Below are positions 17,382 to 55,734 of a DNA stretch of 64,000 bases, piece after piece (position 1 is the stretch's first letter; each line of letters starts with the position of its first letter). Origin of the DNA: Chloroflexota bacterium (lineage in GTDB: Bacteria > Chloroflexota > Dehalococcoidia > Dehalococcoidales > UBA2162). The notes under the pieces are model-generated. The model had not been told where the DNA came from. It worked only from the letters and a program-made list of their open reading frames with translations, and did no database searches. Made by a program: the position numbers and the translations under genes. The stretch spans positions 31,308 to 95,307 of the forward strand of contig JBDRLU010000069.1 of NCBI GenBank assembly GCA_043812795.1. The letters run 5' to 3'.

Positions 17382-17457
17382 ACGCAGATTACCTTGCACT
17401 TTAGAGGCTTTCGGAGTAAGCGATGACTCGCAAGATATTCGGGCAGCCGGCCTAATG

Positions 17458-17539
17458 TGGGGAAGTGGGGACTCGAACCCCAACGCCTTGCGGCACGTGG
17501 TCCTAAGCCACGCCTGTCTGCCAATTCCAGCACTCCCCC
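17458..17539 (-). tRNA. tRNA-Leu (anticodon UAG), class II with long variable arm, no encoded CCA
   Basis: Manual cloverleaf: acceptor GGGGGAG/CUUCCCC, U8, anticodon stem CGUGG/CCACG with loop CUUAGGA, T-arm UGGGG-UUCGAGU-CCCCA, discriminator A. Confidence 0.9.
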
Positions 17540-20749: not shown

Positions 20750-21838
20750 ATGAACCTTCAGGCTAACTGTAAAACCATGGCGATGGGTATCATGCCCCAC
20801 ACTGACGTGGAGCAAGCTTTAAACCTGGCGCTCAGCCTCGATATTCCTTTCTGGCCACAATTGCCCAAGATTGACTTCGGCGAGGATATGTACGCCCAAA
20901 CATCGCGCAATTTCCCCGGCATCATGGTAGATGTCGATAATGAAAAAATCAGCTTCAGTACCGCCAGATTCGAGGAGGAGGTAGCTGATTATTCACAGAA
21001 CATGGTCAAGCCGGAAACTTTTGCCCTGGATCCCAACCACTCCATCACGTACCACAGCTTCCTGTCTCGCGACCTCGGTCGCTATCCGGCTATCCGTGGG
21101 CAGATAACCGGGCCGGTCAGTTTCGGTTTCAGAGTCACCGATGAAAGCAACCGGCCCATTATTTATAACGATGGCATCAGAGCTCTGCTCTTCGATTTCA
21201 TCCAGAGAAAAACAAACTTCCAGTGCGGGCAGCTCAAAGAAAAGAACCCGAACGCCTTTGTCTGGCTCGACGAGCCGGGATTGGGCTGGGTCTTCAGCGG
21301 CCTCTCCGGCTACAGTGATATTCAGGCGAAACAGGACTACCGGGACCTCGTGGCCGGTCTGGATGGCATCAAAGCGTTACACCTCTGCGCTAATGTCAAC
21401 CTGCCTTACCTGCTAGACCTGGGGATTGGGCTTCTCTCTTTTGATGCCTATCAAATAGAACTTATGCCCAAGGGATACGCGAAAGCGGTAGCTGATTTTA
21501 TTGCTAAAGGTGGTGTTATCGCGTGGGGCATCATCCCCACTGATTCGGTTCGTCTCTTACAGGAGACACCGGAAACCCTGGTTAAATTACTCTCGGATTA
21601 CTGGGAAGTAATCTCGCAAAATGCTGGCCTGCCTGTCGAGCAAATTGCTTCCCAGTCCCTGCTGGCCCCGGCACGGTGTTGCCTGAGAAACATTGGCCGG
21701 GTCGGTGCCAGCGATGATGCGAAGGCCTGTGAACGTCCTGAGCGGAAGGCCGAGGAAGAACTGGTGGAAAAGGCGTTCGATTATCTGAGTGCCGTTTCGG
21801 CCATGCTCAAAAATAAGTTTAATTTCAAGAATACATGA
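20750..21838 (+). CDS. UROD/MetE-C-like TIM-barrel superfamily protein (putative methyltransferase; family uncertain)
   Basis: The N-terminal pattern GIMPHTD..A....L..DIPFWPQLP is reminiscent of cobalamin-independent methionine-synthase-like proteins. No catalytic motif was verified. Confidence 0.35.
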   Translation: MNLQANCKTMAMGIMPHTDVEQALNLALSLDIPFWPQLPKIDFGEDMYAQTSRNFPGIMVDVDNEKISFSTARFEEEVADYSQNMVKPETFALDPNHSITYHSFLSRDLGRYPAIRGQITGPVSFGFRVTDESNRPIIYNDGIRALLFDFIQRKTNFQCGQLKEKNPNAFVWLDEPGLGWVFSGLSGYSDIQAKQDYRDLVAGLDGIKALHLCANVNLPYLLDLGIGLLSFDAYQIELMPKGYAKAVADFIAKGGVIAWGIIPTDSVRLLQETPETLVKLLSDYWEVISQNAGLPVEQIASQSLLAPARCCLRNIGRVGASDDAKACERPERKAEEELVEKAFDYLSAVSAMLKNKFNFKNT

Positions 21839-21883: not shown

Positions 21884-21913
21884 AAGAGAGTCCCGACACG
21901 TCGGGACTCTCTT
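21884..21913 (+). terminator. Rho-independent terminator after 20750..21838
   Basis: AAGAGAGTCCCGA-cacg-TCGGGACTCTCTT is a 13-bp stem followed by TCTTCTTTCGGTTT. Confidence 0.7.
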
Positions 21914-22006: not shown

Positions 22007-23209
22007 CTAATCCTCCTGGCTATCTCCGTTGCTCCGAGACAAGGAGGGCACCAGTTCGGCGGCATCGGTCAACTTTCGAAGGTTCGCTTCGTTTCTCTCA
22101 CTGTTGGTCTTGTTCTTTTTAATTAATCCAGGCATTTTATCATAGTATTTCCATACCTTCTCCACAAAGCTCAACCGGGACACAATAACCGTGATCGTCA
22201 ACGTAGCAGCTCCATTAGGATAGTCGCCATATCTGACGATAGCGTCAGGAACCAACTCACCCATATATTCGGAGAGGTCCTTGACCAGGTTGACATTCAT
22301 TTCTTTGGTCGGTGCTGATAACAGATAAAGTGCACTGGACGAATCTTTAGGCTCGCATTTGAGCGATAGGTTGCTGATAGCCTCATCCATGGCGTGTAAG
22401 CCTTTGTGGGTTTCAGTAATCTTGTTTCTGAAATGTTTCCGCCGCCAAAAAGGAAGCTTAATCACCGGCAATTGCGATGAGCCGTAGCCAATTGCCGTCC
22501 AGCCGCTCAAAGTCTCAATGATGTCGCCCGCATCCAGTAGCTTGGCACCGATACGTTTGACCTTTTTCTCCTCACCGGCGCAAAGCAAATCGTAGAATGG
22601 AGCGGCGACTAATTTGTTGATGGCACCGATATTATTTATGAGAGAGGCGTCCTTCTCGATGTACCGCTGGTTATCAACCAGGAACACTGCGTTCGCTACC
22701 GAGTAAGTCCCCTTGAGGCACGTGGCCGTATTATGAAACGTCCTGCCATCCGTTTTCTCTTCGTGTTCGAAGGGTAACACAAGAAGGGCGTAGACCGGCC
22801 TGTGCTTGAAGCGGTCTTTTATTGCCTGTACCATCACCGGTACCGAACCTGAACCGGTGCCGCCGGCAGCACCGGCGATGACCATGAACGCGTCTGCCTC
22901 GTATAATTGTTCATGTGACTTTAGAGCGTCTAGAACCTTGTCGCCGTCTTCCTCAGCTATTTCGGCAGCTAATTCGTTCACCTTACCGACACCATGACCG
23001 CTCGTCCGGCGGGCCCCGATTACGATTCTATGCTGGTAATCAGACCTTATCGCTGACAAGCCGCTCAGGTCAGCGGTGTCTGTGTTTACTGCGAAAGTGT
23101 CGATAATCACATTGATTCGACGATGAGAACAAGCCCTGGAATTCAATCGACAAAACTCGTCGGCAATCCTGCCGCCACACTGTCCAAAACCGATAACCGC
23201 TAGTTTCAT
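22007..23209 (-). CDS. Tubulin/FtsZ-superfamily GTPase, CetZ-like
   Basis: MKLAVIGFGQCGGRI (T1 loop of GQxG type), GHGVGKVNELAAEIAEED, tubulin signature GAAGGTGSGSVP, VFLVDN, T7-like LDAGDIIETL. AAAAGGAGG precedes the ATG. Confidence 0.75.
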   Translation of the reverse strand: MKLAVIGFGQCGGRIADEFCRLNSRACSHRRINVIIDTFAVNTDTADLSGLSAIRSDYQHRIVIGARRTSGHGVGKVNELAAEIAEEDGDKVLDALKSHEQLYEADAFMVIAGAAGGTGSGSVPVMVQAIKDRFKHRPVYALLVLPFEHEEKTDGRTFHNTATCLKGTYSVANAVFLVDNQRYIEKDASLINNIGAINKLVAAPFYDLLCAGEEKKVKRIGAKLLDAGDIIETLSGWTAIGYGSSQLPVIKLPFWRRKHFRNKITETHKGLHAMDEAISNLSLKCEPKDSSSALYLLSAPTKEMNVNLVKDLSEYMGELVPDAIVRYGDYPNGAATLTITVIVSRLSFVEKVWKYYDKMPGLIKKNKTNSERNEANLRKLTDAAELVPSLSRSNGDSQED

Positions 23210-23546
23210 TTCTGACCTCCTTTTGAAGACTTAGTCCTTTCGTTTTATCACGGTTTGGGCTTAAGACTCCGGCGCCTTGCGAGAGCCCAGCCACATTTCG
23301 CGGCTCTTATCTGGAGTCTTTGTCTGCATCCATCACCTCCTTTTAGCTAACAACCGATAGCTAAAGACTGTAGCTTCTTGTATCTCCTCCACTGAATATC
23401 GGCCCTGTTAAGGCAGATATCCCTATATCATTATCCTGTGTTGATACTGAGATAGGAAGGCTCAAAAGGAGTAAGTCTACCAACCGAAAGGTGAATTGTT
23501 TTGAGCTAAAAGGGCAAAATATTATGATTAAAAGAGGAAAATTGCA

Positions 23547-23635: not shown

Positions 23636-23899
23636 TTGGATAAAGAGAAAAAGACAGAAGTCATGAGTACCTATGCCCGGCATGAAGGGGATACTGGCTC
23701 AGCCGAGGTACAGATAGCGCTACTTACCGAAAGGATAAACCAGTTGACCGGACACATGGCGGCCAATCGTCATGACTATCATACGCGGTATGGCTTGATT
23801 AGACTGGTCGGACAGAGACGGAAATTACTGGCTTACCTCAGCCGTGAAGATGTCAGTCGGTATAACGCCCTGATTAGCCGGCTCGGACTGCGTAAGTAA
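23636..23899 (+). CDS. rpsO: 30S ribosomal protein S15
   Basis: HEGDTGSAEVQIALLTERINQLTGHMAANRHDYHTRYGLIRLVGQRRKLLAYL. Confidence 0.92.
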   Translation: MDKEKKTEVMSTYARHEGDTGSAEVQIALLTERINQLTGHMAANRHDYHTRYGLIRLVGQRRKLLAYLSREDVSRYNALISRLGLRK

Positions 23900-29448: not shown

Positions 29449-30750
29449 CTATGGCTTGAGCTGGCTGAAAACAGCTTTACGCTCAATAGTCTGTTCGCGC
29501 TCCGCCCCAACCGAGATAATGCTGACCGGGCAACCGGCCAACTCTTCTAATCTGGACACATACTGGCGGGCTTGTGGCGGTAACTGTTCGAAGTTACGGA
29601 TATCGCTGGTTGGCGTCTGCCAGCCGGGTAGCTCTTCATAGACCGGCTGGCACTTGCCTAGAGCGGTGATACTGGCGGGAAAATTATCGACCGTTTTGCC
29701 CTCCAACTTGTAGCTCACGCATATTTTCAGCCGTGGTAACGAATCGAGGATGTCCAACCGGGTAAGAGCGATGTCCGTGTAGCCATTTACCCGGGTGCTA
29801 AAACGGCCGGCAACGGCATCGAACCAGCCGCAGCGACGCGGCCGGCCGGTCGTGGCGCCGTACTCCTGAGCGCGTTCCCGGATTAAATCGCCCGTGGCAT
29901 CGGTAAGTTCCGTCGGCATCGGCCCGCCGCCGACTCGAGTGCAATAAGCCTTGAATACGCCGACGATGGCGTTTATCTTGGTCGGTCCGATACCGGCACC
30001 GACGCAGCCTCCGCCCGCCAGCGGTGAGGAGGAAGTAGTATAAGGATAAGTGCCGAAGTCAACATCCAGCAAGGTTCCCTGTGCCCCTTCCAGAAGCACC
30101 GGCTCCCCTTTGCTCACCGCTTCCTCAATCATGACCGTTGTCTCACGGATGTGGGGGGCGAGGCGGTCGGCATACCGGCAATATTTGTTGTAGACCCCAT
30201 CGAGTGAGAGCGGGGTTGCCCCATAAACTTTGGTTATAATGTTATTCTTACCCTCGAGAACCTGGTGCAGCCGTTCCCGGAAAGCGTCTCTTTCTAACAG
30301 GTCGCCCGCCCGGATACCCTGACGGGCTGTTTTATCGGCAAAGGCCGGACCGATACCCCGGCCGGTGGTGCCCAGTGCCCCGCCGCCCCTAGACTTCTCT
30401 TCCAGGCCGTCGAGGAGGACGTGGTACGGCATAATCAGGTGGGCGCGGTCGCTGATAAAAAGCCGGCTGGTATCTACACCACGCTCTTTCACCTGGTCGA
30501 TTTCGCCCAGGAGTACCTCGGGATTAATGGCAACACCGTTACCGATGATGCAGGTCGTATGGGGATAAAAAATGCCTGAGGGAACGAGATGTAGTTTGAA
30601 CTCGCCATAGTGGTTAATGACCGTATGGCCGGCATTATCGCCTCCGGAAAAGCGTACCACCAGCCTGGCCCTTTCGGCCAGCATGTCAACCACCTTGCCT
30701 TTCCCCTCATCACCCCATTGAGCTCCGACGGCTGCAACGACTGACATCAT
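29449..30750 (-). CDS. purA: Adenylosuccinate synthase
   Basis: GAQWGDEGKGKVVD..GGDNAGHT..TTGRGIGP..GTTGRPRRCGW. Confidence 0.92.
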   Translation of the reverse strand: MMSVVAAVGAQWGDEGKGKVVDMLAERARLVVRFSGGDNAGHTVINHYGEFKLHLVPSGIFYPHTTCIIGNGVAINPEVLLGEIDQVKERGVDTSRLFISDRAHLIMPYHVLLDGLEEKSRGGGALGTTGRGIGPAFADKTARQGIRAGDLLERDAFRERLHQVLEGKNNIITKVYGATPLSLDGVYNKYCRYADRLAPHIRETTVMIEEAVSKGEPVLLEGAQGTLLDVDFGTYPYTTSSSPLAGGGCVGAGIGPTKINAIVGVFKAYCTRVGGGPMPTELTDATGDLIRERAQEYGATTGRPRRCGWFDAVAGRFSTRVNGYTDIALTRLDILDSLPRLKICVSYKLEGKTVDNFPASITALGKCQPVYEELPGWQTPTSDIRNFEQLPPQARQYVSRLEELAGCPVSIISVGAEREQTIERKAVFSQLKP

Positions 30751-31361
30751 TCCCTCCCAGACTTATTCCCTTTTCGGGTCTGGCGCCAGACATAGACCAG
30801 TCTCTGGCCTACGGTAATAAAACTGAAGAGCGTCATAATAACAAGAGCAGTAACGAGAGCGTAATTGACCCGATATAACAACAGACCCACGGCCAGTATT
30901 ATTACCCGCTCGGTACGGGTGAATATTCCGACCTGGCATTCCAGGCCGGCACCCTCCGCCCGGGCCCGAATATAGCTTACCAGAAATGAACCGAGCAGGG
31001 TGACACCGACGAGTAATATCTTGGGCACTGAGCCTTCGACGGCGTAGATTGCCAAAATACCGAGTAGTGGTATGGCATCAGCCACGCGGTCGAGCGTAGA
31101 ATCAAGGACACCCCCGAAAATGGTGGTCCGCTGTGTGGTGCGCGCCAGCGCCCCATCCAGGATATCGAAGAAACCACCGACCAGGACGATGATACCACCG
31201 ACTACAGGATAACCGGTGGCGATAACCACACCTGCTGCCAGAGTCAGAACGAGCCCGAACCAGGTTATTTGATTGGGTGTTATGGCCGTTCTCGCCAGTA
31301 GATTGATAACAGACTGGGTGAGAGCTCCAGCCAAAGTCTTGCGAATATTCTGCAACTTCAT
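30747..31361 (-). CDS. CDP-alcohol phosphatidyltransferase (phosphatidylinositol-phosphate synthase-like)
   Basis: DILDGALARTTQRTTIFGGVLDSTLDRVAD matches D(x)2DG(x)2AR..G(x)3D(x)3D. The ATGA overlap with purA is 4 nt. The ORF track start at 31406 would overlap the upstream gene by 26 nt. Confidence 0.8.
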   Translation of the reverse strand: MKLQNIRKTLAGALTQSVINLLARTAITPNQITWFGLVLTLAAGVVIATGYPVVGGIIVLVGGFFDILDGALARTTQRTTIFGGVLDSTLDRVADAIPLLGILAIYAVEGSVPKILLVGVTLLGSFLVSYIRARAEGAGLECQVGIFTRTERVIILAVGLLLYRVNYALVTALVIMTLFSFITVGQRLVYVWRQTRKGNKSGRE

Positions 31362-31380
31362 CCCTTGACTCTTCACTATA

Positions 31381-32520
31381 TCAAGCCTTGTTCTGTCGTG
31401 TTTCATTTAATACTTGCGTATAGAAATCGAAGATACGGCGGGCAACGCGCTCCCAGCCATACTCTTCAACTTTAAGCTTGGCCCTTTCGCCCATTTGCCG
31501 CTGGAGAGTCGTATCCTTCATCAGGGAAATCAGCGTTTGGGCCAACTGATGACTATCACGCGGCGGGACGAGTAAACCCTCCGAACCGTGAGTGACGACA
31601 CTGGCATAGCCCTCGATATTGCTGGCGACAATAGGTTTGCCGAGAGCCATCGCCTCGAGCAGTATGATGCCAAAACTCTCCCGGCTGGTCGCTGGCGCGC
31701 AGAAAATATCGGCGGTCTGGTAATAGCGCGGGAGGTCGGCATCGGAGACGTAACCGATAAAAACGACGTCCTTCAGGCCGCTCTTCTTGACCCAGCCTTC
31801 GTACTTCTTGCGCAGGCGGGTGCCCGGGCCGACGGCAATGAGCCGTGAGTTAGGAATTTCCTGCTTGACCTTGTGATAAGCTTGAATCAGGTAACCCAAT
31901 CCCTTACGGCGTTCGAGGCGCCCGACAAAGAGAATGTTCTTCTTACCGTCGGAGAATTCCGGGATAGGCGTAACCTTCGGGGAAAAACGGGTCAGGTCAA
32001 CCCCGTTGGGAATAATAGCGTAATCACCCGGAACGTACTTGCGGGCAAAGTCCATCGCCGGTTTGGAGACGGCAATCTTACCGTCTAGCCGGCGGGACCG
32101 CCGCCATACCAGGATATTGGTGATAGGCCAGAATAAATTATAGCCCGGGCTACCGTGACAGGCATGGAAAGTCCCGATATTGGTGGAATCGGAAAAGCGC
32201 AATACCGCCGAACAGAGCATGGGCATGAAAGGCTCGTGCAAATGGACAATATCGAATTTTTCTTTAGCCAGGACTTCCTTTATCGTGGAAGCAAGCCGCA
32301 CCGATAAGGAAATGCGAACGATAGAGCCACTGCTCGGCAGCGGGCGGGGCTTACCGATGGGAATAAACCTATCGCCGAAGACAGAGACAGCCCGGGATAC
32401 CGGAGCAATGACCCGGACGTCGTGTCCCATCTGGGTAAGACGCTCTTCCAGCGCTGCAATATGATTGGCCACGCCTCCCGGGTAAGCAAAATCGTAAGGA
32501 GAGACCAGCGCTATTTTCAT
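31381..32520 (-). CDS. GT4 glycosyltransferase, PimA-like
   Basis: MKIALVSPYDFAYPGGVANH..FDIVHLHEP..IIPNGVD..FVGRLERRKG..ESFGIILLEAMALGKPIVAS is collinear with my recollection of mycobacterial PimA. Confidence 0.75.
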   Translation of the reverse strand: MKIALVSPYDFAYPGGVANHIAALEERLTQMGHDVRVIAPVSRAVSVFGDRFIPIGKPRPLPSSGSIVRISLSVRLASTIKEVLAKEKFDIVHLHEPFMPMLCSAVLRFSDSTNIGTFHACHGSPGYNLFWPITNILVWRRSRRLDGKIAVSKPAMDFARKYVPGDYAIIPNGVDLTRFSPKVTPIPEFSDGKKNILFVGRLERRKGLGYLIQAYHKVKQEIPNSRLIAVGPGTRLRKKYEGWVKKSGLKDVVFIGYVSDADLPRYYQTADIFCAPATSRESFGIILLEAMALGKPIVASNIEGYASVVTHGSEGLLVPPRDSHQLAQTLISLMKDTTLQRQMGERAKLKVEEYGWERVARRIFDFYTQVLNETRQNKA

Positions 32521-32635
32521 CGATCAACGTCCCGAACTAGCTTCAGCTTCATACCCACCACCTGAAGAGTAATGGACAAAGTTGAACCCACCGCTAACGT
32601 ATTCAGTCTCTCAAGCGGGCATCGCTCGGGAAAGA

Positions 32636-33745
32636 TTAACCTTTCGCCTTACTTTTAGTAGTGGTCTTTTTGGGTGCATTGGCGGCGATGTACTCTTCTA
32701 CCTTATCACGCGCCTCGTAATCTGCGAATTGTACCGGCGGTGATTTCATAAAGTAGGAAGAAGGCCCCACCAGTGCCCCCTTCAACCCACGGTCGAGGGC
32801 CAGCTTGACGCAGCGGATGGCATCGATGACCACACCTGCCGAGTTGGGGCTATCCCACACTTCCAGCTTCATGTCTAGGTTCAAGGGTACGTCACCGAAG
32901 GTACGCCCTTCCATCTTGATGTGGCAGAACTTGCGGTCGAGCAGCCAGGGCACGTAATCACTCGGCCCGACATGGATGTCATCCTGGTTCATCTTATAGG
33001 GTAACTGGGAAGTAACCGAGTTCGTCTTGGAAATTTTCTTGGACTCGAGCCGTTCCCGCTCCAGCATATTAAGAAAGTCGGTATTGCCGCCGAAGTTCAA
33101 CTGGTAGGTGTGTTCCAGCTTGACGCCACGCTCGACGAACAGGCGGGTGAGCACGCGATGCACGATAGTGGCGCCGACCTGGGATTTGACGTCATCGCCG
33201 ATAACCGGCAGGCCATGCTCCGCGAAACGGTCACTCCAGTCTTTGTGACTGGCGATAAAGACTGGAATACAGTTGACCATCCCGCAGCCGGCCTGCAGTA
33301 TCTGCTCAACGTACCATTTGGTGGCCGATTCGCTGCCTACAGGTAGATAGTTCAACACGACATCGGTCTTGGTATCCTTCAGGATTTGCACGATATTGGC
33401 CGTGGAGCCGGGGGCTTTTTGGATTATTTCCGAGAGATACTTGCCGAGGCCATCGTGCGTCATGCCCCTCTGTACCTTAACGCCGGTCACCGGCACGTCG
33501 CAGAACTTGTAAGTATTATTGGGCAGGGTATAAATTGCCTGGGCTAAGTCCTTGCCTACTTTGTTCTTATCGATATCGAAGGCAGCCACAAAATTGATAT
33601 CGCTGATATGGTAGCCGCCGAGGTTGACATGCATAATGCCGGGTATCTGCTCATGTTCTTTGGCGTTCTTGTAGTAGTGCACGCCCTGGACGAGCGATGA
33701 GGCACAATTACCAACGCCGATAATAGCGACGTTAATTTTTCCCAT
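32636..33745 (-). CDS. ino1: myo-inositol-1-phosphate synthase
   Basis: [16 protein letters not shown]..the archaeal/bacterial short MIPS pattern..[23 protein letters not shown]. Confidence 0.85.
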
Positions 33746-41253: not shown

Positions 41254-41327
41254 TGGGGATTAGTCTAGCGGTAGGACACCTGACTCTGGATCAGGCAGGC
41301 CAGGTTCGAATCCTGGATCCCCAGCCA
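41254..41327 (+). tRNA. tRNA-Gln (anticodon CUG), CCA encoded
   Basis: Manual cloverleaf: acceptor UGGGGAU/AUCCCCA, anticodon stem CCUGA/UCAGG with loop CUCUGGA, T-arm CCAGG-UUCGAAU-CCUGG, then G-CCA. Confidence 0.92.
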
Positions 41328-46431: not shown

Positions 46432-48378
46432 TCACCTCGGGCTCCCGAAGAAAACCACCGCTAGCGGGGGCAGGGTGAAGGTTATGGAACAGGGGCGGCC
46501 CTGGAAGGGAATCGGTGCTGCTTCCACGCCGCCAAAGTTACCGTGACCACTGCCTCCGTATTCCTTGGCATCGCTATTAAGTAGTTCTTTCCAGAATCCT
46601 GAACGCGGTACACCTATACGATAGTTCAGGCGAGGTACCGACGTGAAATTAGCCACTAAAAGCACACTATCGTTATTGACTCGTCCCTTTCTAACAAAGC
46701 TGACCACGCTTTGCTCGATATCTTTGCAGTCAATCCACTCAAATCCGGATGGAGTATAGTCCTGTTGGTAAAGAGCCGGCTGGCTCCGGTAGAAGCGGTT
46801 CAGGTCTTCAACCCAGAGCTTGAGTGCCGTGTGCGGCGGGTAATTTAAGAGGTGCCAGTCCAAGCTACCATCATGCTCCCACTCCCCCCACTGACCGAAC
46901 TCACCTCCCATGAAAAGCAGCTTTTTCCCAGGTTGAGCATACATATAGCCTAGGAGTAACCTCAAGTTGGCAAACTTCTGCCAATCATCCCCGGGCATCT
47001 TACCAAGAAGTGAACTCTTACCATAGACAACTTCATCATGAGAAAGGGGAAGAATAAAGTTTTCAAAAAAGGCATATATTAGCCGAAAGGTGAGATTATT
47101 GTGATGGTACTTACGGTAGATAGGGTCCATAGTCATGTATTCCAGCGTATCATGCATCCAGCCCATATCCCACTTGAGTCCGAAGCCTAACCCTCCAATG
47201 TACACTGGCCGGGATACCATCGGCCAGGCAGTGGATTCCTCGGCAATGGTCTGAACCCCAGGATTTTCCTGATAGACCGCTTCATTGAGGTGGCGTAGAA
47301 AGGCGATGGCCTCCAGATTTTCACGACCCCCATACTTATTGGGTATCCACTCACCTGCCTTGCGTCCGTAGTCCAGATAAAGCATGGAGGCAACGGCGTC
47401 CACACGTAGTCCGTCAACGTGGTGTTTGTCCAGCCAGAAAAGGGCACTACTGAGCAGGAAGCTCCTGACCTCGTTGCGGCTGTAATTAAAGATAAAAGTA
47501 TTCCAGTCAGGATGGATCCCCTGCTTCGGGTCCTCGTGTTCGTAGAGATGTGTACCATCAAAATAACTCAGTCCATGTTCATCGTTCGGGAAATGGGAAG
47601 GCACCCAGTCGAGGATGACACCTATATCATGCTGGTGTAGATAGTCAATAAGGTACATGAAATCCTGCGGGGTACCATAACGGCTCGTGGGAGCAAAATA
47701 GCCAGTAGTCTGGTAGCCCCATGACCCGTAGAACGGGTGCTCCATGACCGGCAAAAACTCAACATGTGTGAAACCCATTTGCTGTAAATACTCAGCAAGA
47801 AGAGGAGCCAACTCCCGGTAGGTGAGATGGCGGTTCTGCTCTTCAGGCACGCGCCGCCAGGAACCGATGTGTACCTCATAAATGGAAATAGGAGTATCCA
47901 GCGCGTTTCGTTCCTGCCTTTTCTGCATCCACGACTGGTCTCCCCAGTCATAATCTAAGTCCCAGACAACCGAGGCTGTTTTCGGTGGTATCTCATCATA
48001 GAATGCCAGTGGGTCAGCTTTGTCTACTTGGTAACCATGATGATGGGAAACAATGTGGTACTTGTAGAGGGCACCCTTACTTACATTTGGAATTAAGCCT
48101 TCCCAGATGCCAGATTGTCCCTTGGGACGCAGTGGATGGCTCGACTTATTCCAACCATTGAATTCTCCAGTGACGAATACTTGCTTAGCATTGGGTGCCC
48201 AAACGGCAAAATGGGTTCCTGCAACTCCGTCTACAATGGTAGGGTGGGCTCCCAACTTTTCATAGAGCCGATAATGAGAGCCCTCATTGAAGAGGTATAG
48301 GTCATTATCGGTCAATTTGCTCACATCGTATTTAACTGCTGCCTTTCTATCTTTCCTCTGTTCCATCCTAGACTTCAC
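46432..48378 (-). CDS. glgB: 1,4-alpha-glucan branching enzyme
   Basis: GH13 motifs [34 protein letters not shown]. The N-terminus is of CBM48 type. Confidence 0.9.
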
Positions 48379-48455
48379 CCCCTTTGTAATTTGGGATTAA
48401 TTCCAAACGAACTAATGACCTTAGTCGACTCAAATAATCGCTCCAGGCTTGTTGC

Positions 48456-51400
48456 TCAAATGCTTACCTCCATCACTTGCAATATGCCTTGAAGAGGTAC
48501 CCTTACCCAGTTAGGCCGATTGTTGAGCTCATAGCCAATTTCGTAGATGGCTTTCTCTAAAATATAGGCGTCGAGAAGAATCCTTAGCTGGTCTGGAGAC
48601 TCAGGTAGTAGGTGAGCCTGTCTCATCCCATCTAGGTACGACGTCAGAAACGATACTGAGACCCAGACGTACCAGTACTGTGCCCAATGCTCCAGTACAG
48701 GGAGGTCGCTTTCTGCATGGGGCGCTAACGGTACCTGACGAAGAAGGGCGCTGTGAGCAGCATAGTGAAAAGAACGTATGAGCCCAGCAACATCCAGAAG
48801 AGGCGAGCGCTTGAGACGCCGTTCACTCAGCGAACGTGCAGGCTCACCCTCAAAGTCAATGATGACAAAGTCTTTACCGGTATAAAGAACCTGACCCAAA
48901 TGATAATCGCCATGGCAGCGTATTCTTGCGGCCGAAATCCTTTGCTTACGGATTAGTTGATAGCGTTCAATGATAGGCTTTTCTAAGTCTAGAGTCTGTT
49001 GCGCGTTTTCCTTAAGTTCTGGCGGCAGATCCTTTAGCTTCTCTCGTAGCAACTGCAGTATTCGGATGGTGAAACTACGCATAGACTGGTAGAGCGAGGT
49101 CTGGTACATACCTGAAAACGGCTCCGGAGTAAAGTCTGGGTCATCCGGCACAGAGGCCAGAGCCAAATGAAGTTCGGCGGTGCGCTGTCCCAGAAGCTGT
49201 GCCGAAACTAGATAGGGACCGATAGTCTCCCTCGCAAGAGAGGGAGGCTCCTTTAGCAACGATAGCAGGTGTCTCTGAGGAACGGGTGGCGCCTGCACTG
49301 TAGGATGTGATAACACAGATTGAAAGTAACGCTCTAGTGAGTCCAGAGTATAACGCCATGCATCCCCCTCGTTGGGCACGAAGCCCTGTAGGACGGCCAG
49401 ACTTATCGGCTTGCCCTTTGCCCGAGAATATTCAAGAGCACCCGCTAATGGAGAAATGTGAGTAAACGATGTCTTTTCCGTAAGAAAGCGGCCGATTTCC
49501 AGTTCCGGATTAATCCCCTCTCCAAGCTGACGGAAAAGCTTGAGTATCAATCGGTTCCCATAAACTACAGAGGTATTGGTCTGCTCCACTTTCATCGGGG
49601 TGGGTTCCAGAGGAACTTCATCTGAGCCACGGGTACCGCGGAAAGTCCGAGTTGACGAAGCGACTATCTCCCCGACTTTCCCTTTGAAACGGCGCCTTCG
49701 ACCGATGCTTTGCAAGAGGAACTTGCAGAAGCTCTCGTCTATCATAGCATCGCAGAGTAGCGATTCACTGTCTTCGCCTGGTACCCCGAGGCGAGCGACA
49801 ATAGCCTGGGACTGGTCACTACCAATCCCACCCATCTGGTCAGCAGAAGTGACAATGAGAGGAACTACATAAGTCTCCGGCTCACCCTCCGTGTAATCAA
49901 TCTGAATGAGGATAACACAGGTAGTAGATTGTGAGGGGTTCATTGGAATGACATCCGTGATTCGGGATGACCGGATGTCTCTCGCTTTACTGCGGAACCA
50001 GCGGCGGCCTCTCATATAGTTCTGCAGTACTGATTCCAGTACAGGCCAGTTTTCTTTGTCAAACAGTTCACTACCCGTCTTCGCGATGTTTGGGACCGCC
50101 ATTATTTCCTCTGAAGGCAGAGTGCGGAGTCGCAGTGTCTCTGTCGGCTGTGGTTGTAAGGAAAACCAGTAGAAGGCGTACGGGCCAAGAGTAAAATAGT
50201 ATTTACCATCACTGACTGGTGTGAACTCCACCCGCCCGAAAAGGTCGATCAGCCTCCAACCTGTAAATTCGGGGAGGTCCAATTGTGTCTGTTGTACCAA
50301 ACGTGAAAGATTAACAACCACCAGGATTGTCTCCTCCTTATAGCGCCGGAGAAAAGCTAGGACCCTGCGGTTTTGCGGTTGAAGGAATTCAATAGTGCCA
50401 CGGCTAAGGGACTGATAGTGTTTTCGCAGGGTAATAATGCGCTTCATCCACCATAGTAAGGAATCGCTATTGGCCTGTTGTGTCTCTACATTTATTGCCT
50501 CATAGTGGTATTCTGGGTCAACTACCGGCGGGAGGTAAAGTCTCTGCGGATTGGAGCGGGAAAAGCCGGCATTCCGTTCGGGACTCCATTGCATCGGGGT
50601 GCGTACCCCGTTGCGGTCTCCGAGATAGAAGTTGTCACCCATACCGATTTCATCTCCGTAGTAAATCACCGGCGTCCCGGGCAGTGAAAAGAGTAGCGCA
50701 TTCATCAACTCGATCTTCTTCCGGTCATTGTTTAGTAGTGGAGCCAGGCGGCGGCGAATACCAAGGTTGATGCGGGCAGCGGGGTCGCTGGCATAGATAC
50801 GGTACATGTAGTCCCGCTCCTCATCGGTGACCATCTCCAGTGTCAACTCGTCATGGTTACGAAGGAAAATAGCCCACTGGCAGTTTTCCGGTATTGGTGG
50901 AGTCTGCTGGAGAATGTCAACGATGGGGAATCGGTCTTCCATGCGGATCGCCATAAACAAGCGCGGCATAATGGGGAAATGAAAGGCCATGTGGAACTCA
51001 TCCCCATTACCAAAATAGGGAACTACGTCCTCAGGCCACTGGTTAGCCTCAGCCAAAAGCATGCGGTTCTTGAATTTGTTGTCAATATGTGCCCGCAATT
51101 CCTTTAAGAAGGCATGAGTTTCGGGCAGGTTTTCACAGCTGGTTCCCTCCCGTTCGTAAAGATAAGGCACGGCGTCCACTCGCAGCCCGTCAACTCCCAG
51201 CTTCAACCAGAAGTCCATAACCTTGAATATTGCCCTTCGCACCGTAGGGTTATCGTAGTTCAGGTCGGGTTGATGGGAATAGAAGCGATGCCAATAGTAT
51301 GCCTTGGCCAGGTGGTCCCATGTCCAATTGGAATACTCAAAATCCTTAAATATGATACGGGCTTCCTTGTATTTCTCTTGAGTGTCGCTCCATACGTAAA

Positions 51401-51809
51401 AGTCACGCGAACGGCTTCCAGGAGCCGACCTTCGTGCCTGCTGAAACCACGGGTGCTGGTCAGAAGTATGGTTAACAACCAACTCTGTGATGACACGCAA
51501 GCTATGGCGATGTGCTTCCTCAACAAAGGTTTTGAAATCACCCATTTGCCCGTAGATAGAGTGGACGTTGTAATAGTCAGAAATATCATAGCCATCGTCT
51601 TTGAGTGGCGAGGGGTAGAACGGAAGTAACCACAGAGTACTAACTCCAAGGTCTTCAAGATAATCAAGTTTCTCTATCAGTCCCTGGAAGTCACCAACGC
51701 CGTCGGCATCACTATCATGGAAGGACCTGACGTGAAGTTCGTAAATTACTGCGTCCCTATACCAGAGGGGGTCGTCTCGAAATGATAATATTTCGGTGTT
51801 TCTTATCAT
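48456..51809 (-). CDS. treS: Trehalose synthase fused to maltokinase (TreS-Pep2)
   Basis: The N-terminal GH13 TreS region reads YELHVRSFHDSDADGVGDF..GLRVDAVPYL..RNHDELTLE. The C-terminal maltokinase kinase-like region reads RCHGDYHLGQVLYTGKDFVIIDFEGEP. Confidence 0.9.
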   Translation of the reverse strand: MIRNTEILSFRDDPLWYRDAVIYELHVRSFHDSDADGVGDFQGLIEKLDYLEDLGVSTLWLLPFYPSPLKDDGYDISDYYNVHSIYGQMGDFKTFVEEAHRHSLRVITELVVNHTSDQHPWFQQARRSAPGSRSRDFYVWSDTQEKYKEARIIFKDFEYSNWTWDHLAKAYYWHRFYSHQPDLNYDNPTVRRAIFKVMDFWLKLGVDGLRVDAVPYLYEREGTSCENLPETHAFLKELRAHIDNKFKNRMLLAEANQWPEDVVPYFGNGDEFHMAFHFPIMPRLFMAIRMEDRFPIVDILQQTPPIPENCQWAIFLRNHDELTLEMVTDEERDYMYRIYASDPAARINLGIRRRLAPLLNNDRKKIELMNALLFSLPGTPVIYYGDEIGMGDNFYLGDRNGVRTPMQWSPERNAGFSRSNPQRLYLPPVVDPEYHYEAINVETQQANSDSLLWWMKRIITLRKHYQSLSRGTIEFLQPQNRRVLAFLRRYKEETILVVVNLSRLVQQTQLDLPEFTGWRLIDLFGRVEFTPVSDGKYYFTLGPYAFYWFSLQPQPTETLRLRTLPSEEIMAVPNIAKTGSELFDKENWPVLESVLQNYMRGRRWFRSKARDIRSSRITDVIPMNPSQSTTCVILIQIDYTEGEPETYVVPLIVTSADQMGGIGSDQSQAIVARLGVPGEDSESLLCDAMIDESFCKFLLQSIGRRRRFKGKVGEIVASSTRTFRGTRGSDEVPLEPTPMKVEQTNTSVVYGNRLILKLFRQLGEGINPELEIGRFLTEKTSFTHISPLAGALEYSRAKGKPISLAVLQGFVPNEGDAWRYTLDSLERYFQSVLSHPTVQAPPVPQRHLLSLLKEPPSLARETIGPYLVSAQLLGQRTAELHLALASVPDDPDFTPEPFSGMYQTSLYQSMRSFTIRILQLLREKLKDLPPELKENAQQTLDLEKPIIERYQLIRKQRISAARIRCHGDYHLGQVLYTGKDFVIIDFEGEPARSLSERRLKRSPLLDVAGLIRSFHYAAHSALLRQVPLAPHAESDLPVLEHWAQYWYVWVSVSFLTSYLDGMRQAHLLPESPDQLRILLDAYILEKAIYEIGYELNNRPNWVRVPLQGILQVMEVSI

Positions 51810-51815
51810 GAGATT

Positions 51816-52181
51816 CTAGTCACCAAGCAGAGTATGTACAAACTCCATCAATTCTTTGATACCGATTGGTTTGACCAGAAGAGCACCGGCCCCATGTTTC
51901 ATACTGTCCCGCTGAATGGTGGGACTACGCTGTGGCGAAATCACAATAAATGGTATCTTTGTCTTCCGCATTTGCTCGCAGCGCTGCCAGATGCGCTGGT
52001 CAAACCCAGACAGGTCTACGAGAGAAAGTGCAATACCCTGTTTCCCCTGGATAGCATCATCGAGTTCCTCCATACTAGCGGCGCTGAGCGTCTTGTAGCC
52101 CTCTCTACCTAATTGCTGTGATAGTAGTTCCAAATTTGTACGATTGGTACCCACCGTTAGAATCACCGGTTTCTCAGTCAT
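51816..52181 (-). CDS. Stand-alone receiver-like (CheY-fold) protein lacking the acidic Mg-binding pair
   Basis: The REC pattern has the phospho-acceptor-position Asp (LSLVDLSG), Ser at the T87-equivalent position (FIVISP) and Lys (LLVKPI). The N-terminal DD position reads VGTN. It sits 6 nt upstream of treS-pep2. Confidence 0.75.
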   Translation of the reverse strand: MTEKPVILTVGTNRTNLELLSQQLGREGYKTLSAASMEELDDAIQGKQGIALSLVDLSGFDQRIWQRCEQMRKTKIPFIVISPQRSPTIQRDSMKHGAGALLVKPIGIKELMEFVHTLLGD

Positions 52182-52227
52182 GGCTCACCCCCCCACCAGT
52201 TGGTGACAATTCCATCTGCCCTATCGC

Positions 52228-53712
52228 TTACCTACTCCCCCCACCCATCAGGGAGCGCATAAGTCCCACACCTCCAAGAATACCGCCCATCATCGTTAAG
52301 GTCTTGCCTACTCTTATTCCCCGACGAGTAATTTCAAACTCACACAAGTTTTTATCAAAGTCACTCGTACGTTTTTCCAATATACCAATGGTCCGGCGCA
52401 GCTCTCCTGCCGTCTCCACGTAGCGTAGAAAAATGACGTTGTCTGCCAGGTAGCTTATACCAGCTTCGGTAGCACGGAACTCACCGGTTATGCTTTCCAC
52501 TTCGCTAATCAGTATCGCTGTCACCCCCATGTTTTTCAGATAACGGCACAGCGCATTAAGATGAGAGGCCAAGTCCTTGCTGGCCAAGGAAAGTTGATAA
52601 CCAGCGGTACTATCCAGCATTATAATCCGGGTATTATTCTCCTCCACTTCTCTTCTCACCAGGTAAGCAAACTCATCAGTCGTGTAGTATAGCGGCTCTA
52701 TCTCCATTACAGATAATGTGCCTTTTTCCAACATAGAACGGACAGGCATCTTAATACCATCGCACCGGCGGAGCATGGTTTCTCTGCCTTCTTCAAAACT
52801 GTAAACCACCGAACGCTCTCCTCTCCCCGCTGCCTCCCTTAAAAACTGGAGACCGAGCGTCGTTTTGCCTACCCCAGCCGGACCGCTGATGATGGTAACT
52901 GTCCCCCTCTCCAATCCCCCATGGAGCATTTTGTCCAGTTCCGGTACCCCGAAGGTAAGAGACTCAACCACAAAGTCTCTATGGTATGCCCCGGGTATTA
53001 GCCGCGGGAAGACTTCCATGCCGCTGCTTCCCAAGCGTAAGGAGTGCTGTCCGCTTTGAAAGCCCGAACCGCGGAACTTAGTCACGCTGACCGTCCGTCC
53101 CGTGGTCGGGAAGTCCAGGCTAATTACTCCATCGCTCAGGAATTGCAGGTCATCGTCAGGAGCCTCAGTACTTCCTTCAGAGCAGAGGAGAACGGTAGCG
53201 CCTTGTTCCGTCAGATAGCGTGACAGGGCCAGCATTTGCTTGCGGAACTGGAAAGCATCAGTGGTAAGGTAGCGAAATTGGGTGGCTGAGTCTACAAATA
53301 CGCGACTCGGCTTGAGCCTTTCTATCTCTCCCTTAATTTTCTCAGTGGTTGCTCCCCTCTCCACTTCCGCAGGAGAGAAAATGTCATAGCTCTGTGACTC
53401 GGTAAAGAATTCTGAAGATGGGGTCAGATCCAGAAAGCTGACCCCCTTAAGGTCAAAACTCAGAGATGCCGCATTCTCGCGCACCTGTTCTTCCGGTTCA
53501 CCTAAGGTGATGAAGAGGACATTCTCACCTGCAGTTGCACCGTTGGTCAGAAAGTGCAAACCGACCGTGCTTTTACCAGTGCCTGGCCCGCCTCGAACAA
53601 GGTAGACTCGCCGGGCAACGAGTCCGTGGTGCAGGATTTCGTCCAGACCCGGTACCCCGGTGGATATACGCATTTCAGATTCCTTGTTTTTCTCCACTCT
53701 CTCGCTAGGCAT
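52228..53712 (-). CDS. KaiC-like double-domain RecA-superfamily ATPase
   Basis: Two KaiC-type modules: GVPGLDEILHHGL..GGPGTGKST and GVPELDKMLHGGL..GPAGVGKTT. Walker B-like DS motifs are present. The C-terminal block reads ISYLADNVIFLRYVETAGELRR. Confidence 0.8.
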   Translation of the reverse strand: MPSERVEKNKESEMRISTGVPGLDEILHHGLVARRVYLVRGGPGTGKSTVGLHFLTNGATAGENVLFITLGEPEEQVRENAASLSFDLKGVSFLDLTPSSEFFTESQSYDIFSPAEVERGATTEKIKGEIERLKPSRVFVDSATQFRYLTTDAFQFRKQMLALSRYLTEQGATVLLCSEGSTEAPDDDLQFLSDGVISLDFPTTGRTVSVTKFRGSGFQSGQHSLRLGSSGMEVFPRLIPGAYHRDFVVESLTFGVPELDKMLHGGLERGTVTIISGPAGVGKTTLGLQFLREAAGRGERSVVYSFEEGRETMLRRCDGIKMPVRSMLEKGTLSVMEIEPLYYTTDEFAYLVRREVEENNTRIIMLDSTAGYQLSLASKDLASHLNALCRYLKNMGVTAILISEVESITGEFRATEAGISYLADNVIFLRYVETAGELRRTIGILEKRTSDFDKNLCEFEITRRGIRVGKTLTMMGGILGGVGLMRSLMGGGSR

Positions 53713-53739
53713 TTGTACCTCCTTCAGGTTGGCTAATCT

Positions 53740-55734
53740 TTACAGGTAATAATCAAAGTCACGCTCACTACGCACACGCCGACGCACGCGCAAGATATGA
53801 GCTGGTACAATCTGCGGGTTGAGTTCCACATAGTTTCGTGAGCCCTGCCACAGGTAGCGAGCTCCGCTCAGCAGGTCATGCACCTGGTAGGGTTGCGTGG
53901 AATCAAGCCCCAGTATATCGAGAGGGAGTTCTAGCCAGCCCGAGTGGGTATGGTGAGGATCCAGATTCGCAACGACCACTATGATATTGGAAAAATCTTC
54001 GGTATGCTTACTGTAGCAAATCAGGCGGTCGTTATCTATAGGGTGGAAACTCAAGTTCGAGTCGCGCTGAAGCGCCGCATTTTCCCGGCGAATGCGATTC
54101 ACCCGACCGATAAAATCCTTCAAACTGTCTGGCCGGGCAGTATCCCAGTGCTTCACCTCATACTTTTCGGAGTCCAAGTACTCTTCGCTTCCCGGCTCCT
54201 TCGGTCGGTTTTCACACAGCACAAAAGCGGGGCCATAAATCCCGTAATTTGCTCCCAACGTGGCGGCCAGGGTAAGGCGCACCATAAAAGCTGCTCGACC
54301 ACCTGCCTGGAGATACTCCGTCAGGATGTCGGGGGTGTTTGGCCAAAGGTTGGGACGGAAATACTCACGCAACTCTGATTGGGTCAGGTCATCAAAGTAC
54401 TGAGTGAGTTCCCATTTTGTATTCCGCCAGGCAAAGTAGGTATAGGACTGGCTAAATCCGAGCTCGGCAAGCTGATACATTACGTTGGGTCGAGTAAACG
54501 CCTCGGCGAGAAAAATTACCTCGGGGAATGTCTTCTTAATTTCACTAATCAGCCACTCCCAGAAACTGAATGGCTTGGTATGAGGATTGTCGACCCGAAA
54601 GATGCGGACGCCTTGCTCAATCCAAAAGAGCATTATACTTTTGAGTTCCTGCCAAAGCTGTTTCCAGTCATCACTTTCAAAATTAAGCGGATAGATGTCC
54701 TGGTATTTCTTGGGCGGGTTTTCCGCGTACTGCACTGTCCCATCTGGTCGCCAGGAGAACCACTTGGGATGCTCCTTTACGTAGGGATGGTCTGGCGAAC
54801 ACTGGAACGCGATATCTAGAGCGATTTCTATACCATGTTCTTCGGCGTTAGAAACAAGCCGACGGAAGTCTTCTAGTGTGCCAAGCTTCGGATGAACAGC
54901 CATGTGCCCACCTTCTTCGGCACCAACGGCCCACGGTGTTCCTGGGTCACCCGTCCCGGCAATAATCGTATTGTTCTTCCCTTTTCGATTGGTATGTCCA
55001 ATGGGATGAATGGGTGGGAGATAGAGAACATCGAAGCCCATTTCGGCAATGTAGGGCAGTTGAGCTTCACAATCCTTAAAGGTACCATAGCGTCCCGGCT
55101 CTATTGCGCAAGAGCGGGGGAACATCTCATACCAAGTGCTGAAGCGAGCTTTTTCCCGATCCACAACTACCACAAGTTGCTTGGGGTAGGTAGCGACGAA
55201 CTTCCGGCTAGCGTATTTGTCCATGAGGCTAGCTACCTCATCACTCAAGGCTAGCTGAACCTTATCCTTTTCCATAACCCCTGGCGATTGCAGGTTTTTT
55301 ACCCACCCTTGCATAATCCGTTTGTCAGCGGGGGCTGCTCTTTCGCTTCCCTCGGCAATAAGTTGCGCACCGGCGAGAATATTGACCAAGATATTCTCCT
55401 GGCTAGCCTCGACCCTTTTTTGCAGATCCACTCGCCAGGACTTGAAACGGTCTACCCAGGCTACAATCGTATATACATAGCGCCCGAGTTCAGTTACTAC
55501 AAAAGACCCTCGCCAGCAGTCATTCCGCGATGGTTCCATTACCGTTTCGGACCATTTGGAGTCGTTCTCTGTGCGATATAAAAGACATGTCGAAAGACTA
55601 TCGTGGCCATCCGCAAAAACGACCGCCTCGATATTTACCTTCTCACCAATGACCCGTTTGATAGGGAAACGTCCGTCCTCAATCTCAGGCTCCACATTCT
55701 TGATAGTTACGCGAACCCTATCTTCGAATTCCAT
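53740..55734 (-). CDS. glgE: Alpha-1,4-glucan:maltose-1-phosphate maltosyltransferase
   Basis: The N-terminal block is V.P..DGRFPIKRV.GE.V...A.VFADGHD, followed by a GH13_3 catalytic core. Confidence 0.9.
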   Translation of the reverse strand: MEFEDRVRVTIKNVEPEIEDGRFPIKRVIGEKVNIEAVVFADGHDSLSTCLLYRTENDSKWSETVMEPSRNDCWRGSFVVTELGRYVYTIVAWVDRFKSWRVDLQKRVEASQENILVNILAGAQLIAEGSERAAPADKRIMQGWVKNLQSPGVMEKDKVQLALSDEVASLMDKYASRKFVATYPKQLVVVVDREKARFSTWYEMFPRSCAIEPGRYGTFKDCEAQLPYIAEMGFDVLYLPPIHPIGHTNRKGKNNTIIAGTGDPGTPWAVGAEEGGHMAVHPKLGTLEDFRRLVSNAEEHGIEIALDIAFQCSPDHPYVKEHPKWFSWRPDGTVQYAENPPKKYQDIYPLNFESDDWKQLWQELKSIMLFWIEQGVRIFRVDNPHTKPFSFWEWLISEIKKTFPEVIFLAEAFTRPNVMYQLAELGFSQSYTYFAWRNTKWELTQYFDDLTQSELREYFRPNLWPNTPDILTEYLQAGGRAAFMVRLTLAATLGANYGIYGPAFVLCENRPKEPGSEEYLDSEKYEVKHWDTARPDSLKDFIGRVNRIRRENAALQRDSNLSFHPIDNDRLICYSKHTEDFSNIIVVVANLDPHHTHSGWLELPLDILGLDSTQPYQVHDLLSGARYLWQGSRNYVELNPQIVPAHILRVRRRVRSERDFDYYL

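Follow-up and report, generated by a model that had tools for sequence, protein, structure and literature searches.

The 64,000-nt stretch of DNA analysed here (the window; positions 31,308 to 95,307, forward strand, of contig JBDRLU010000069.1, GenBank assembly GCA_043812795.1, from a Chloroflexota bacterium of the Dehalococcoidales) carries, on its minus strand, a gene whose product belongs to the tubulin/FtsZ superfamily and is CetZ-like rather than a canonical FtsZ. The gene is truly bacterial, neither a contaminant nor the product of a chimera, and the Dehalococcoidia family to which it belongs appears from sequence comparison to be a deep, multi-paralogue clade whose monophyly is moderately supported. 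It is probable, in our judgement, that the protein forms a GTP-driven, membrane-tethered CetZ-like filament that serves cell shape or division in this Dehalococcoidia-specific clade.

The domain composition of the protein is that of CetZ. Specifically, Pfam places a Tubulin domain (PF00091) at residues 3–183 (E = 4e-29, 102.6 bits against a cutoff of 33) and CetZ_C (PF21011) at residues 192–352 (E = 6e-12, 45.9 bits against a gathering cutoff of 21.6), and finds neither FtsZ_C (PF12327) nor Tubulin_C in the protein. Tubulin_2 (PF13809) scores 18.6 bits, under its cutoff of 27, and the FtsZ equivalog model of NCBIfam, TIGR00065, scores 58 bits and does not reach its cutoff of 295.2. Among PDB sequences, the best phmmer matches are CetZ1 (4b46, 3e-40), CetZ2 (4b45, 2e-28) and a Methanosaeta CetZ-like protein (3zid, 5e-14), followed by FtsZ entries from ~1e-7 and by gamma-tubulin at ~1e-3, the last over residues 72–182 only. 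Other Dehalococcoidales paralogues share 58–60% identity with the protein; for CetZ1 the figure is 37%, for CetZ2 35% (GTPase domain) and for the FtsZ of its own lineage 22%, and the nearest labelled archaeal proteins reach only ~30–37%. Its plasmid matches are haloarchaeal CetZ only, with none on bacterial plasmids, and phage matches number zero. The original prediction, made from the DNA letters alone, had held that the protein is not a canonical FtsZ, and these comparisons bear it out; an assignment to FtsZl-1 or TubZ, which would have spoken against the prediction as a whole, did not emerge from the Tubulin_2 score or from the plasmid and phage matches.

Alignment with CetZ1 (4b46) extends over the whole series of tubulin motifs. 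The N-terminus MKLAVIGFGQCGG lies in register with MKLAMIGFGQAGG, and a second block, GHGVGKVNELAAEIAEEDGD, with GHGVGADNELGAEIAEEDID. Further on, AGAAGGTGSGS of the window protein pairs with the signature block SGLGGGTGSGG, RPVYALLVLP with EPVYGLGILP, and the T7 block LDAGDIIETL with VDSSEIINTL. The CetZ1 motifs that the original prediction had quoted are all present and align residue for residue.

The predicted fold agrees with the domain assignment. An AlphaFold2 model calculated from an alignment of 64 diverse sequences has a predicted local distance difference test (pLDDT) score of 94 and a predicted template modelling score (pTM) of 0.91, whereas an alignment of the 27 close homologues alone gave a pLDDT of 48 and an unusable model. 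A Foldseek search of the PDB with the former model ranks 4b46 (CetZ1), 4b45 (CetZ2) and 3zid first to third, with template modelling (TM) scores and root-mean-square deviations (RMSDs) of 0.91 and 2.0 Å for CetZ1 and 0.93 and 2.1 Å for CetZ2, and with FtsZ behind at ~0.85 and ~3 Å. The comparison of an AlphaFold model with CetZ structures, proposed as a check of the original prediction, thus came out in its favour.

The nucleotide-binding and catalytic loops are preserved. In T1, GFGQCGG of the window protein corresponds to GFGQAGG in CetZ1 and to GLGGGGC in the FtsZ of the lineage; residues G7, G9, Q10, C11 and G12 are invariant among 27 homologues, in agreement with the earlier assignment of this loop to the GQxG and not the GGGG type. 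In T7, D226 and D229 align with D215 and E218 of CetZ1 and with the D..D motif of FtsZ, and D226, G228, D229 and I230 are invariant in the same 27 homologues. E218 of CetZ1 is catalytic, and the E218A mutant blocks filament dynamics (PMC13556191). Conservation of the T1, T4 and T7 residues extends across the paralogue classes as well. In the basic M-loop-like insertion, the pattern ..R..FRKKSTETHKG is kept across paralogue classes, with R261 and K263 invariant, while residues 251–260 (pLDDT ~60) form the sole low-confidence loop in the globular part of the model. Mean column identity within the subclade of the window protein is 80%, which suggests strong purifying selection on that subclade. 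The coordinates of all features are collected in the table.

Table. Features of the CetZ-like gene and its surroundings, in window coordinates; residue numbers refer to the encoded protein.
Feature	Coordinates	Strand	Remarks
CetZ-like GTPase coding sequence, 400 aa	22007..23209	-	Stop codon 22007-22009; open reading frame, Pfam, PDB match, AlphaFold2, Foldseek
Shine-Dalgarno sequence AGGAGG	23216..23221	-	Read from the sequence (cctcct on the + strand); 6 nt before the ATG at 23209
T1 nucleotide-binding loop GFGQCGG, residues 7-13	23171..23191	-	Tubulin/CetZ GQxG, not FtsZ GGGG
T4 tubulin signature loop AGGTGSG, residues 115-121	22847..22867	-	Invariant in homologues; aligns with CetZ1 GGGTGSG
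T7 (synergy) loop LDAGDI, residues 225-230	22520..22537	-	By alignment with CetZ1
M-loop-like basic insertion LPVIKLPFWRRKHFRNKI, residues ~246-263	22421..22474	-	Between S7 and H9; gapped in FtsZ
Long C-terminal helix and charged, variable helical linker, residues 350-384	22058..22162	-	Helix in AlphaFold2 model; variable in alignment
C-terminal peptide LVPSLS, residues 386-391, then 9-residue acidic tail	22037..22054	-	Putative anchor-docking peptide
GC-rich hairpin, 13-bp stem, between the convergent genes	21884..21913	.	Terminator score on + strand; T-tract on + strand only

According to the open reading frame list and sequence of the window, the minus-strand frame is uninterrupted and begins with the N-terminus aligned above. 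All homologues have the N-terminus MKL(V/A)V, which fixes the ATG start. The downstream neighbour (20750–21838, plus strand) is convergent and the upstream neighbour, rpsO (23636–23899, plus strand), is divergent, so that the gene is necessarily monocistronic; the description of the gene as monocistronic with its own strong Shine-Dalgarno sequence was therefore correct. A promoter scan of the 426-bp divergent intergenic region found no consensus sigma-70 promoter for the CetZ-like gene, its sole match being a strong rpsO promoter on the opposite strand, and an Rfam scan of the same region found nothing. The hairpin between the convergent genes could act as a bidirectional terminator and so serve the CetZ-like gene too.

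The surroundings of the gene are bacterial. One flank holds genes for a sigma-70 factor, a nitroreductase and a major facilitator superfamily transporter, and the other holds rpsO, pnp, dapB, asd and dapA; the adjoining rpsO-pnp-dapB-asd-dapA genes and sigma-70 gene identify the setting as bacterial. The GC content of the gene (0.50) is close to that of its flanks (0.51–0.53), and its GC content at third codon positions (0.58) is likewise similar to theirs. An identical protein in NCBI, named 'cell division protein FtsZ', comes from a 109-kb contig of a Chloroflexota metagenome-assembled genome (MAG). The gene had been described as lying between a metabolic gene and rpsO-pnp. The rpsO-pnp side of this description stands; the 'metabolic' side is unconfirmed, as the 362-aa open reading frame at 20750–21838 has no match in Pfam-A or among PDB sequences. 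In the closest relative (75% identity), the gene follows two response regulators near glnA and has no rpsO-pnp linkage. The adjacency is thus not kept even in the closest relative and is incidental, and a functional reading of it was dropped. The contig of that relative also carries, beside glnA and nadE, a gene for a protein with NRD1_2 and WHD_RNase_R domains (L084:3938-4933). We take these two domains to be those paired in NrpR, the nitrogen repressor of archaea. Such a reading would agree with the homologues of archaeal MMP0607 described before in Dehalococcoides (PMC1852104).

The window gene is one of a large family. A pattern scan that covered one genome for each GTDB species confirmed at least 584 related loci, and open reading frames were called and clustered for synteny at the best 80 of them. 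These come from 74 assemblies, almost all of them MAGs labelled Dehalococcoidales, Dehalococcoidaceae or Dehalococcoidia. HMMER, run exhaustively against 1.8 billion cluster representatives, returned 58 clusters at E<=1e-30, the nearest labelled ones being Dehalococcoidia; the look-ups labelled only some representatives, and many deep clusters are nameless. Together with the GC content and the bacterial neighbours, this distribution confirms that contamination is unlikely, as had been argued from the neighbourhood alone. Two loci (L055 and L057) come from MAGs labelled 'Deltaproteobacteria bacterium', and carry Dehalococcoidales-type CetZ-like genes followed by dnaX-ybaB (in L055, in the order gap-cetZ-cetZ-dnaX-ybaB-recR); these bins are probably mislabelled or contaminated.

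Several assemblies carry two or three CetZ-like copies on separate contigs, and the copies fall into distinct contexts. The dominant one has the order eno, an HGD-D-like gene, gap, the CetZ-like gene, dnaX, ybaB and recR, with dnaX directly downstream in 46 cases among the best 80 loci and gap directly upstream in 39. About 20 loci have a second paralogue; between it and the first stand two genes in divergent orientation and without a Pfam match, which encode an Ala/Glu/Arg-rich coiled-coil repeat protein of ~700 aa and a coiled-coil protein of ~174 aa (for example L027:5048-7746, minus strand; likewise L010, L014, L016, L020 and L021). These coiled-coil proteins are possible filament partners, and one of them may correspond to btf_0548 of Dehalococcoides mccartyi, a hypothetical protein near the tubulin gene of that organism.

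In a further context, a third paralogue is located directly 3′ of ftsZ, in the same-strand order mraZ-rsmH-ftsA-ftsZ-cetZ-like-nrdR (L013:3811-9986 and L039:3848-9930). The ftsZ-adjacent paralogue matches CetZ_C with 58.7 bits, and the true FtsZ beside it matches B. subtilis FtsZ with 370 bits and has a Pfam-confirmed FtsZ_C. Both genes are present at both loci, and canonical ftsZ and CetZ-like genes therefore coexist in the family; in some Dehalococcoidales the two seem to belong to one operon. None of these contexts applies to the window gene or to the sequences most closely related to it (L001–L008 and P0002). Their subclade has more than 100 members at 63–75% identity, and the same assemblies hold syntenic paralogues (in CAZNSC01, L002 and L007 as against L015). 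No second tubulin-family gene was found in the 64-kb window.

In neighbour-joining trees, the family groups apart from the labelled archaeal proteins. A neighbour-joining tree of 188 sequences (Kimura distances, 100 bootstraps) was rooted on real Dehalococcoidales FtsZ together with E. coli and B. subtilis FtsZ. The Dehalococcoidia-type sequences and seven deep representatives form one clade with 77% bootstrap support, and the same clade is recovered at 65–74% in four of five alternative treatments; a tree of the C-terminal domain only has no resolving power. All labelled archaeal sequences, namely Haloferax CetZ1 and CetZ2, a Halogeometricum 'Tubulin-like protein CetZ', and those of Nitrososphaerales, Bathyarchaeia and Methanobacteriota, fall outside it. 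Within the clade, the window protein belongs to a paralogue subclade with 97% bootstrap support. Support along the backbone is below 10%, and the reference set is without Thermococcales CetZ, the group by which the canonical CetZ clade is bounded (Brown & Duggin 2023; compare the supported 'canonical CetZ' node of Santana-Molina 2023). Both a sister position to archaeal CetZ and one nested within it are compatible with this tree, and an ancient inter-domain transfer, in one direction or the other, is possible. A transfer from archaea to bacteria was one of the origins proposed earlier; in a recent or isolated form, it is not in keeping with a deep, multi-paralogue clade that has conserved synteny in Dehalococcoidia.

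The deep representatives of the clade are bacterial or borne on mobile elements. P0144/P0302, a deep-branching, CetZ_C-positive tubulin-like protein of 418 aa (L081:8001-10305, L082:8001-10305 and L083:8001-10296), is always followed by a conserved gene for a 324–327-aa protein without a Pfam match, on at least nine contigs. Around this pair are resolvases, IS605/TnpB, IS66 and other transposases and a group II intron reverse transcriptase, and the pair looks like a mobile-element-borne module of a tubulin and its partner. P0233 adjoins a bacterial-sized rpsL-rpsG-fusA block and ParB. P0164 (420 aa; L087:4229-5491 and L088:4331-5593) has a Tubulin domain only and lies among small unannotated genes, with a homologue of Acb1 (phage anti-CBASS) nearby, which suggests a phage-encoded tubulin.

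The family shares a short C-terminal peptide. The tail motif [ILVM]-P-x-[LFIM] is present in 101 of 101 locus-derived proteins and in 120 of the 120 closest hits (221/221), as compared with 9 of 602 other open reading frames (1.5%). The family consensus, (D/A)(I/V)PSL(L/F), follows a variable, charged helical linker, and A383, P388, S389 and L390 are invariant. The syntenic paralogues end in KDIPSLL-COOH, and the subclade of the window protein ends in AVPSL(L/F). In the FtsZ of the same lineage (L013 and L039), the conserved region ends in ELDVPSFLR. This last sequence is the C-terminal peptide typical of FtsZ, the docking site for FtsA, ZipA or SepF in other bacteria. For CetZ-like proteins, no description of the tail motif was found in two surveys of the CetZ family.

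These features suggest how the window protein would work. It would bind GTP and polymerise head-to-tail, with the T7 loop of one subunit completing the GTPase site of the next, and would in this way form dynamic filaments. The flexible tail peptide (D-I/V-P-S-L-L/F, as against D-V-P-S-F-L in the FtsZ of the lineage) would dock the filaments to a membrane anchor, most likely FtsA, with SepF as an alternative. The filaments would then organise the envelope for shape, division or both alongside FtsZ, in a manner similar to that of CetZ in archaea without a wall. Because the window copy stands alone, is monocistronic and belongs to a separate subclade of paralogues, a specialised or condition-specific role is probable for it.

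The biology of the lineage provides a setting for such a role. Dehalococcoidales and SAR202 have lost peptidoglycan (dcw) genes and have an S-layer-like wall, with mraZ-mraW-ftsA-ftsZ kept and ftsZ reported in all examined Dehalococcoidales (Wiegand et al. 2023, PMC10608941). In the proteome of D. mccartyi BTF08, an 'FtsZ/Tubulin GTPase', btf_0551, is distinct from FtsZ, btf_0595 (Kruse et al. 2021, PMC8163811). In that study, disc-shaped cells of the pure culture are rich in btf_0551 and in a hypothetical protein encoded nearby, and barrel-shaped cells of the co-culture contain less of both, a correlative observation.

Several points weigh against a membrane-tethered filament for shape or division. 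The commonest synteny, with dnaX-ybaB-recR, might just as well point to a function connected with the nucleoid. In the window protein itself, the peptide departs from the consensus, with LVPSLS carrying Ser for the final hydrophobic residue and nine extra residues behind it, so that this paralogue might dock less firmly. Tails of a like kind are also seen in some archaeal relatives (for example DIPPLL in Bathyarchaeia), and the motif is therefore probably ancestral and not a newly evolved mimicry, in which case the partner could be SepF or another protein instead of FtsA. Neither FtsA nor SepF was found in the window, which covers 64 kb of the 109-kb contig, with B. subtilis SepF as the probe for the latter.

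A rival reading takes the protein for a TubZ/PhuZ-like tubulin that segregates DNA for a mobile element or the chromosome. The surroundings of two deep relatives are mobile or phage-like (P0144, with its transposases, resolvases and partner gene, and P0164, near Acb1), dnaX-ybaB-recR accompanies the main Dehalococcoidales paralogue, and DNA or an adaptor might be bound through the basic M-loop. At the window locus, however, neither mobile elements nor an adaptor gene adjoin the CetZ-like gene, Tubulin_2 stays under its cutoff, phage and bacterial plasmid matches are zero, and the fold is nearest to CetZ; we regard DNA segregation as unlikely for the window gene, although it may apply to the deep relatives on mobile elements. 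That the window gene is instead a redundant, decaying paralogue without a function of its own is hard to reconcile with an intact frame, a strong Shine-Dalgarno sequence, invariant catalytic and nucleotide-binding residues, a high-confidence model, and a subclade with 97% bootstrap support whose more than 100 members at 63–75% identity show 80% mean column identity. This leaves decay very unlikely, even though genomes hold multiple paralogues, the subclade lacks conserved synteny and the tail peptide is off consensus.

Two further explanations concern what the gene is and where it comes from. P0001 and many homologues go by the name of FtsZ in NCBI and JGI records, and a tubulin-superfamily GTPase with an FtsZ-like C-terminal peptide might be taken for the organism's own FtsZ, driving Z-ring division. 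This is highly improbable given the TIGR00065 score (58 against 295 bits), CetZ_C in place of FtsZ_C, GQCG instead of GGGG in T1 and only 22% identity to the true FtsZ of the lineage, which coexists with CetZ-like genes in L013 and L039 and has its gene in all the Dehalococcoidales examined in PMC10608941. The closest characterised proteins are archaeal, and Dehalococcoidia hold other archaeal-derived genes, among them those for the archaellum (PMC12488501) and the proteins reported in PMC1852104, as would be expected if the gene lay on mis-binned or chimeric archaeal DNA or had arrived in a very recent single transfer from an archaeon. Set against this are a composition like that of the flanks, bacterial genes on both sides on one 109-kb contig, at least 584 related loci, conserved bacterial synteny in the best 80, and identities of ~30–37% to labelled archaeal proteins, and we give the idea almost no credence. 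The CetZ-like filament for shape or division remains our preferred account of the window gene.

Comparison with known systems shows what the family has in common with the archaeal CetZ proteins and where it differs from them. With Haloferax volcanii CetZ1 (4B46) and CetZ2 (4B45), the window protein shares the fold (TM 0.91–0.93, RMSD ~2 Å), the Tubulin and CetZ_C domains, a GQxGG T1 loop, GHGVG..NEL.AEIAEED, a T7 D..(D/E)I motif, a long M-loop, a C-terminal helix and an acidic tail. It differs from them in its bacterial host, in a GTPase-domain identity of 35–37% and in its separate clade (65–77% bootstrap), which has the signatures GQCG, LPFEHEE, DNQRY and the basic M-loop ..R..FRKKSTETHKG. 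The tails differ too, being of the FtsZ type, (I/V)PSL(L/F), in the bacterial clade and of forms such as DIDGLL or EPLF in haloarchaeal CetZ-type representatives. Methanosaeta (Methanothrix) thermophila 3ZID resembles the window protein in GVGQCG, LPF.EE, VDNQ and overall fold, but is only 28% identical at an RMSD of 4.4 Å and, in the tree, falls into neither the archaeal CetZ group nor the bacterial clade.

More distant families share fewer features. Bacterial FtsZ is of the same superfamily, with the same logic of a polymerisation-activated GTPase and the same arrangement of linker and docking peptide (DVPSFL compared with D(I/V)PSLL); at 22% identity, the window protein differs from it in lacking FtsZ_C, in reading GQCG for GGGG and in having the M-loop insertion and the long C-terminal helix. 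TubZ, PhuZ and FtsZl-1 are likewise divergent bacterial members of the tubulin superfamily, and some deep relatives in the clade are carried on mobile elements, but the window gene is under the Tubulin_2 cutoff, and its surroundings are neither plasmid-like nor phage-like and include no adaptor gene. From eukaryote-type tubulin and BtubAB it is set apart by the missing Tubulin_C and by gamma-tubulin matches of only ~1e-3.

Members of the family have been noted before. CetZ-like Chloroflexota-Dehalococcoidia sequences, with C-termini matching the CetZ_C hidden Markov model at ~1e-10, were reported by Santana-Molina et al. (2023, PMC9871819) and filed there as 'CetZ-like', outside canonical CetZ. 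These sequences and btf_0551, the latter likened by its description, almost certainly belong to the same family as the window gene. The suggestion of an undescribed lineage is consequently not upheld, bacterial CetZ-like genes having already been published (PMC9871819) and an 'FtsZ/Tubulin GTPase' having been recorded in a proteome (PMC8163811). In those papers, the group is treated in passing, as 'sparse paraphyletic groups', in contrast to the at least 584 loci, moderately supported monophyly, multiple paralogues and conserved synteny found here. Family size, paralogue classes, synteny, the copy 3′ of ftsA-ftsZ, the FtsZ-type tail and the coiled-coil genes were not found described in the literature searched. 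We file the family as CetZ-like: its domains and fold are those of CetZ, and its host is a Chloroflexota bacterium and not an archaeon.

Other parts of the window hold genes related to the envelope and to polysaccharide metabolism. Genes for myo-inositol-1-phosphate synthase, a GT4 glycosyltransferase and a CDP-alcohol phosphatidyltransferase stand in a row at 30747–33745 (minus strand) and form a lipid cluster of the phosphatidylinositol(-mannoside) type, which is of note for the envelope given the unusual wall of the lineage. An alpha-glucan (GlgE) pathway cluster with a GlgE maltosyltransferase occupies 46432–55734 (minus strand); it includes a 1117-aa fusion of alpha-amylase and maltokinase-type domains (TreS-Mak-like) and an unannotated open reading frame (46432–48378), and is broken by a KaiC-family ATPase (52228–53712) and a small unannotated open reading frame (51816–52181). 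ARAGORN places a tRNA-Leu at 17457–17539 (minus strand), and an Rfam scan at gathering thresholds returned a tRNA-Gln at 41254–41324 only.

A wider reading of the family is conceivable, though we hold it to be rather doubtful: CetZ-like paralogues and FtsZ would together form a multi-tubulin cytoskeleton that shares a docking peptide and an anchor (FtsA or SepF), includes the coiled-coil proteins as partners, and replaces peptidoglycan and the elongasome in S-layer-walled, disc-shaped cells, as a counterpart of archaeal CetZ with, maybe, a euryarchaeal origin in the episode that brought the archaellum. Reviews still describe CetZ as restricted to archaea, where it is the third tubulin family and gives wall-less cells their shape (PMC9856176). 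If this wider reading, including acquisition from Euryarchaeota, were true, CetZ would not be archaea-specific.

Hundreds of genes of the family are now mislabelled 'cell division protein FtsZ'. The FtsZ-type docking peptide leads to a concrete, testable hypothesis, an anchor shared with FtsZ. The family would extend the set of archaeal-type cell-biology modules in Chloroflexota, beside the archaellum, and its presence in bacteria with an archaeal-style S-layer and no peptidoglycan would amount to a natural experiment in shape and division without a wall.

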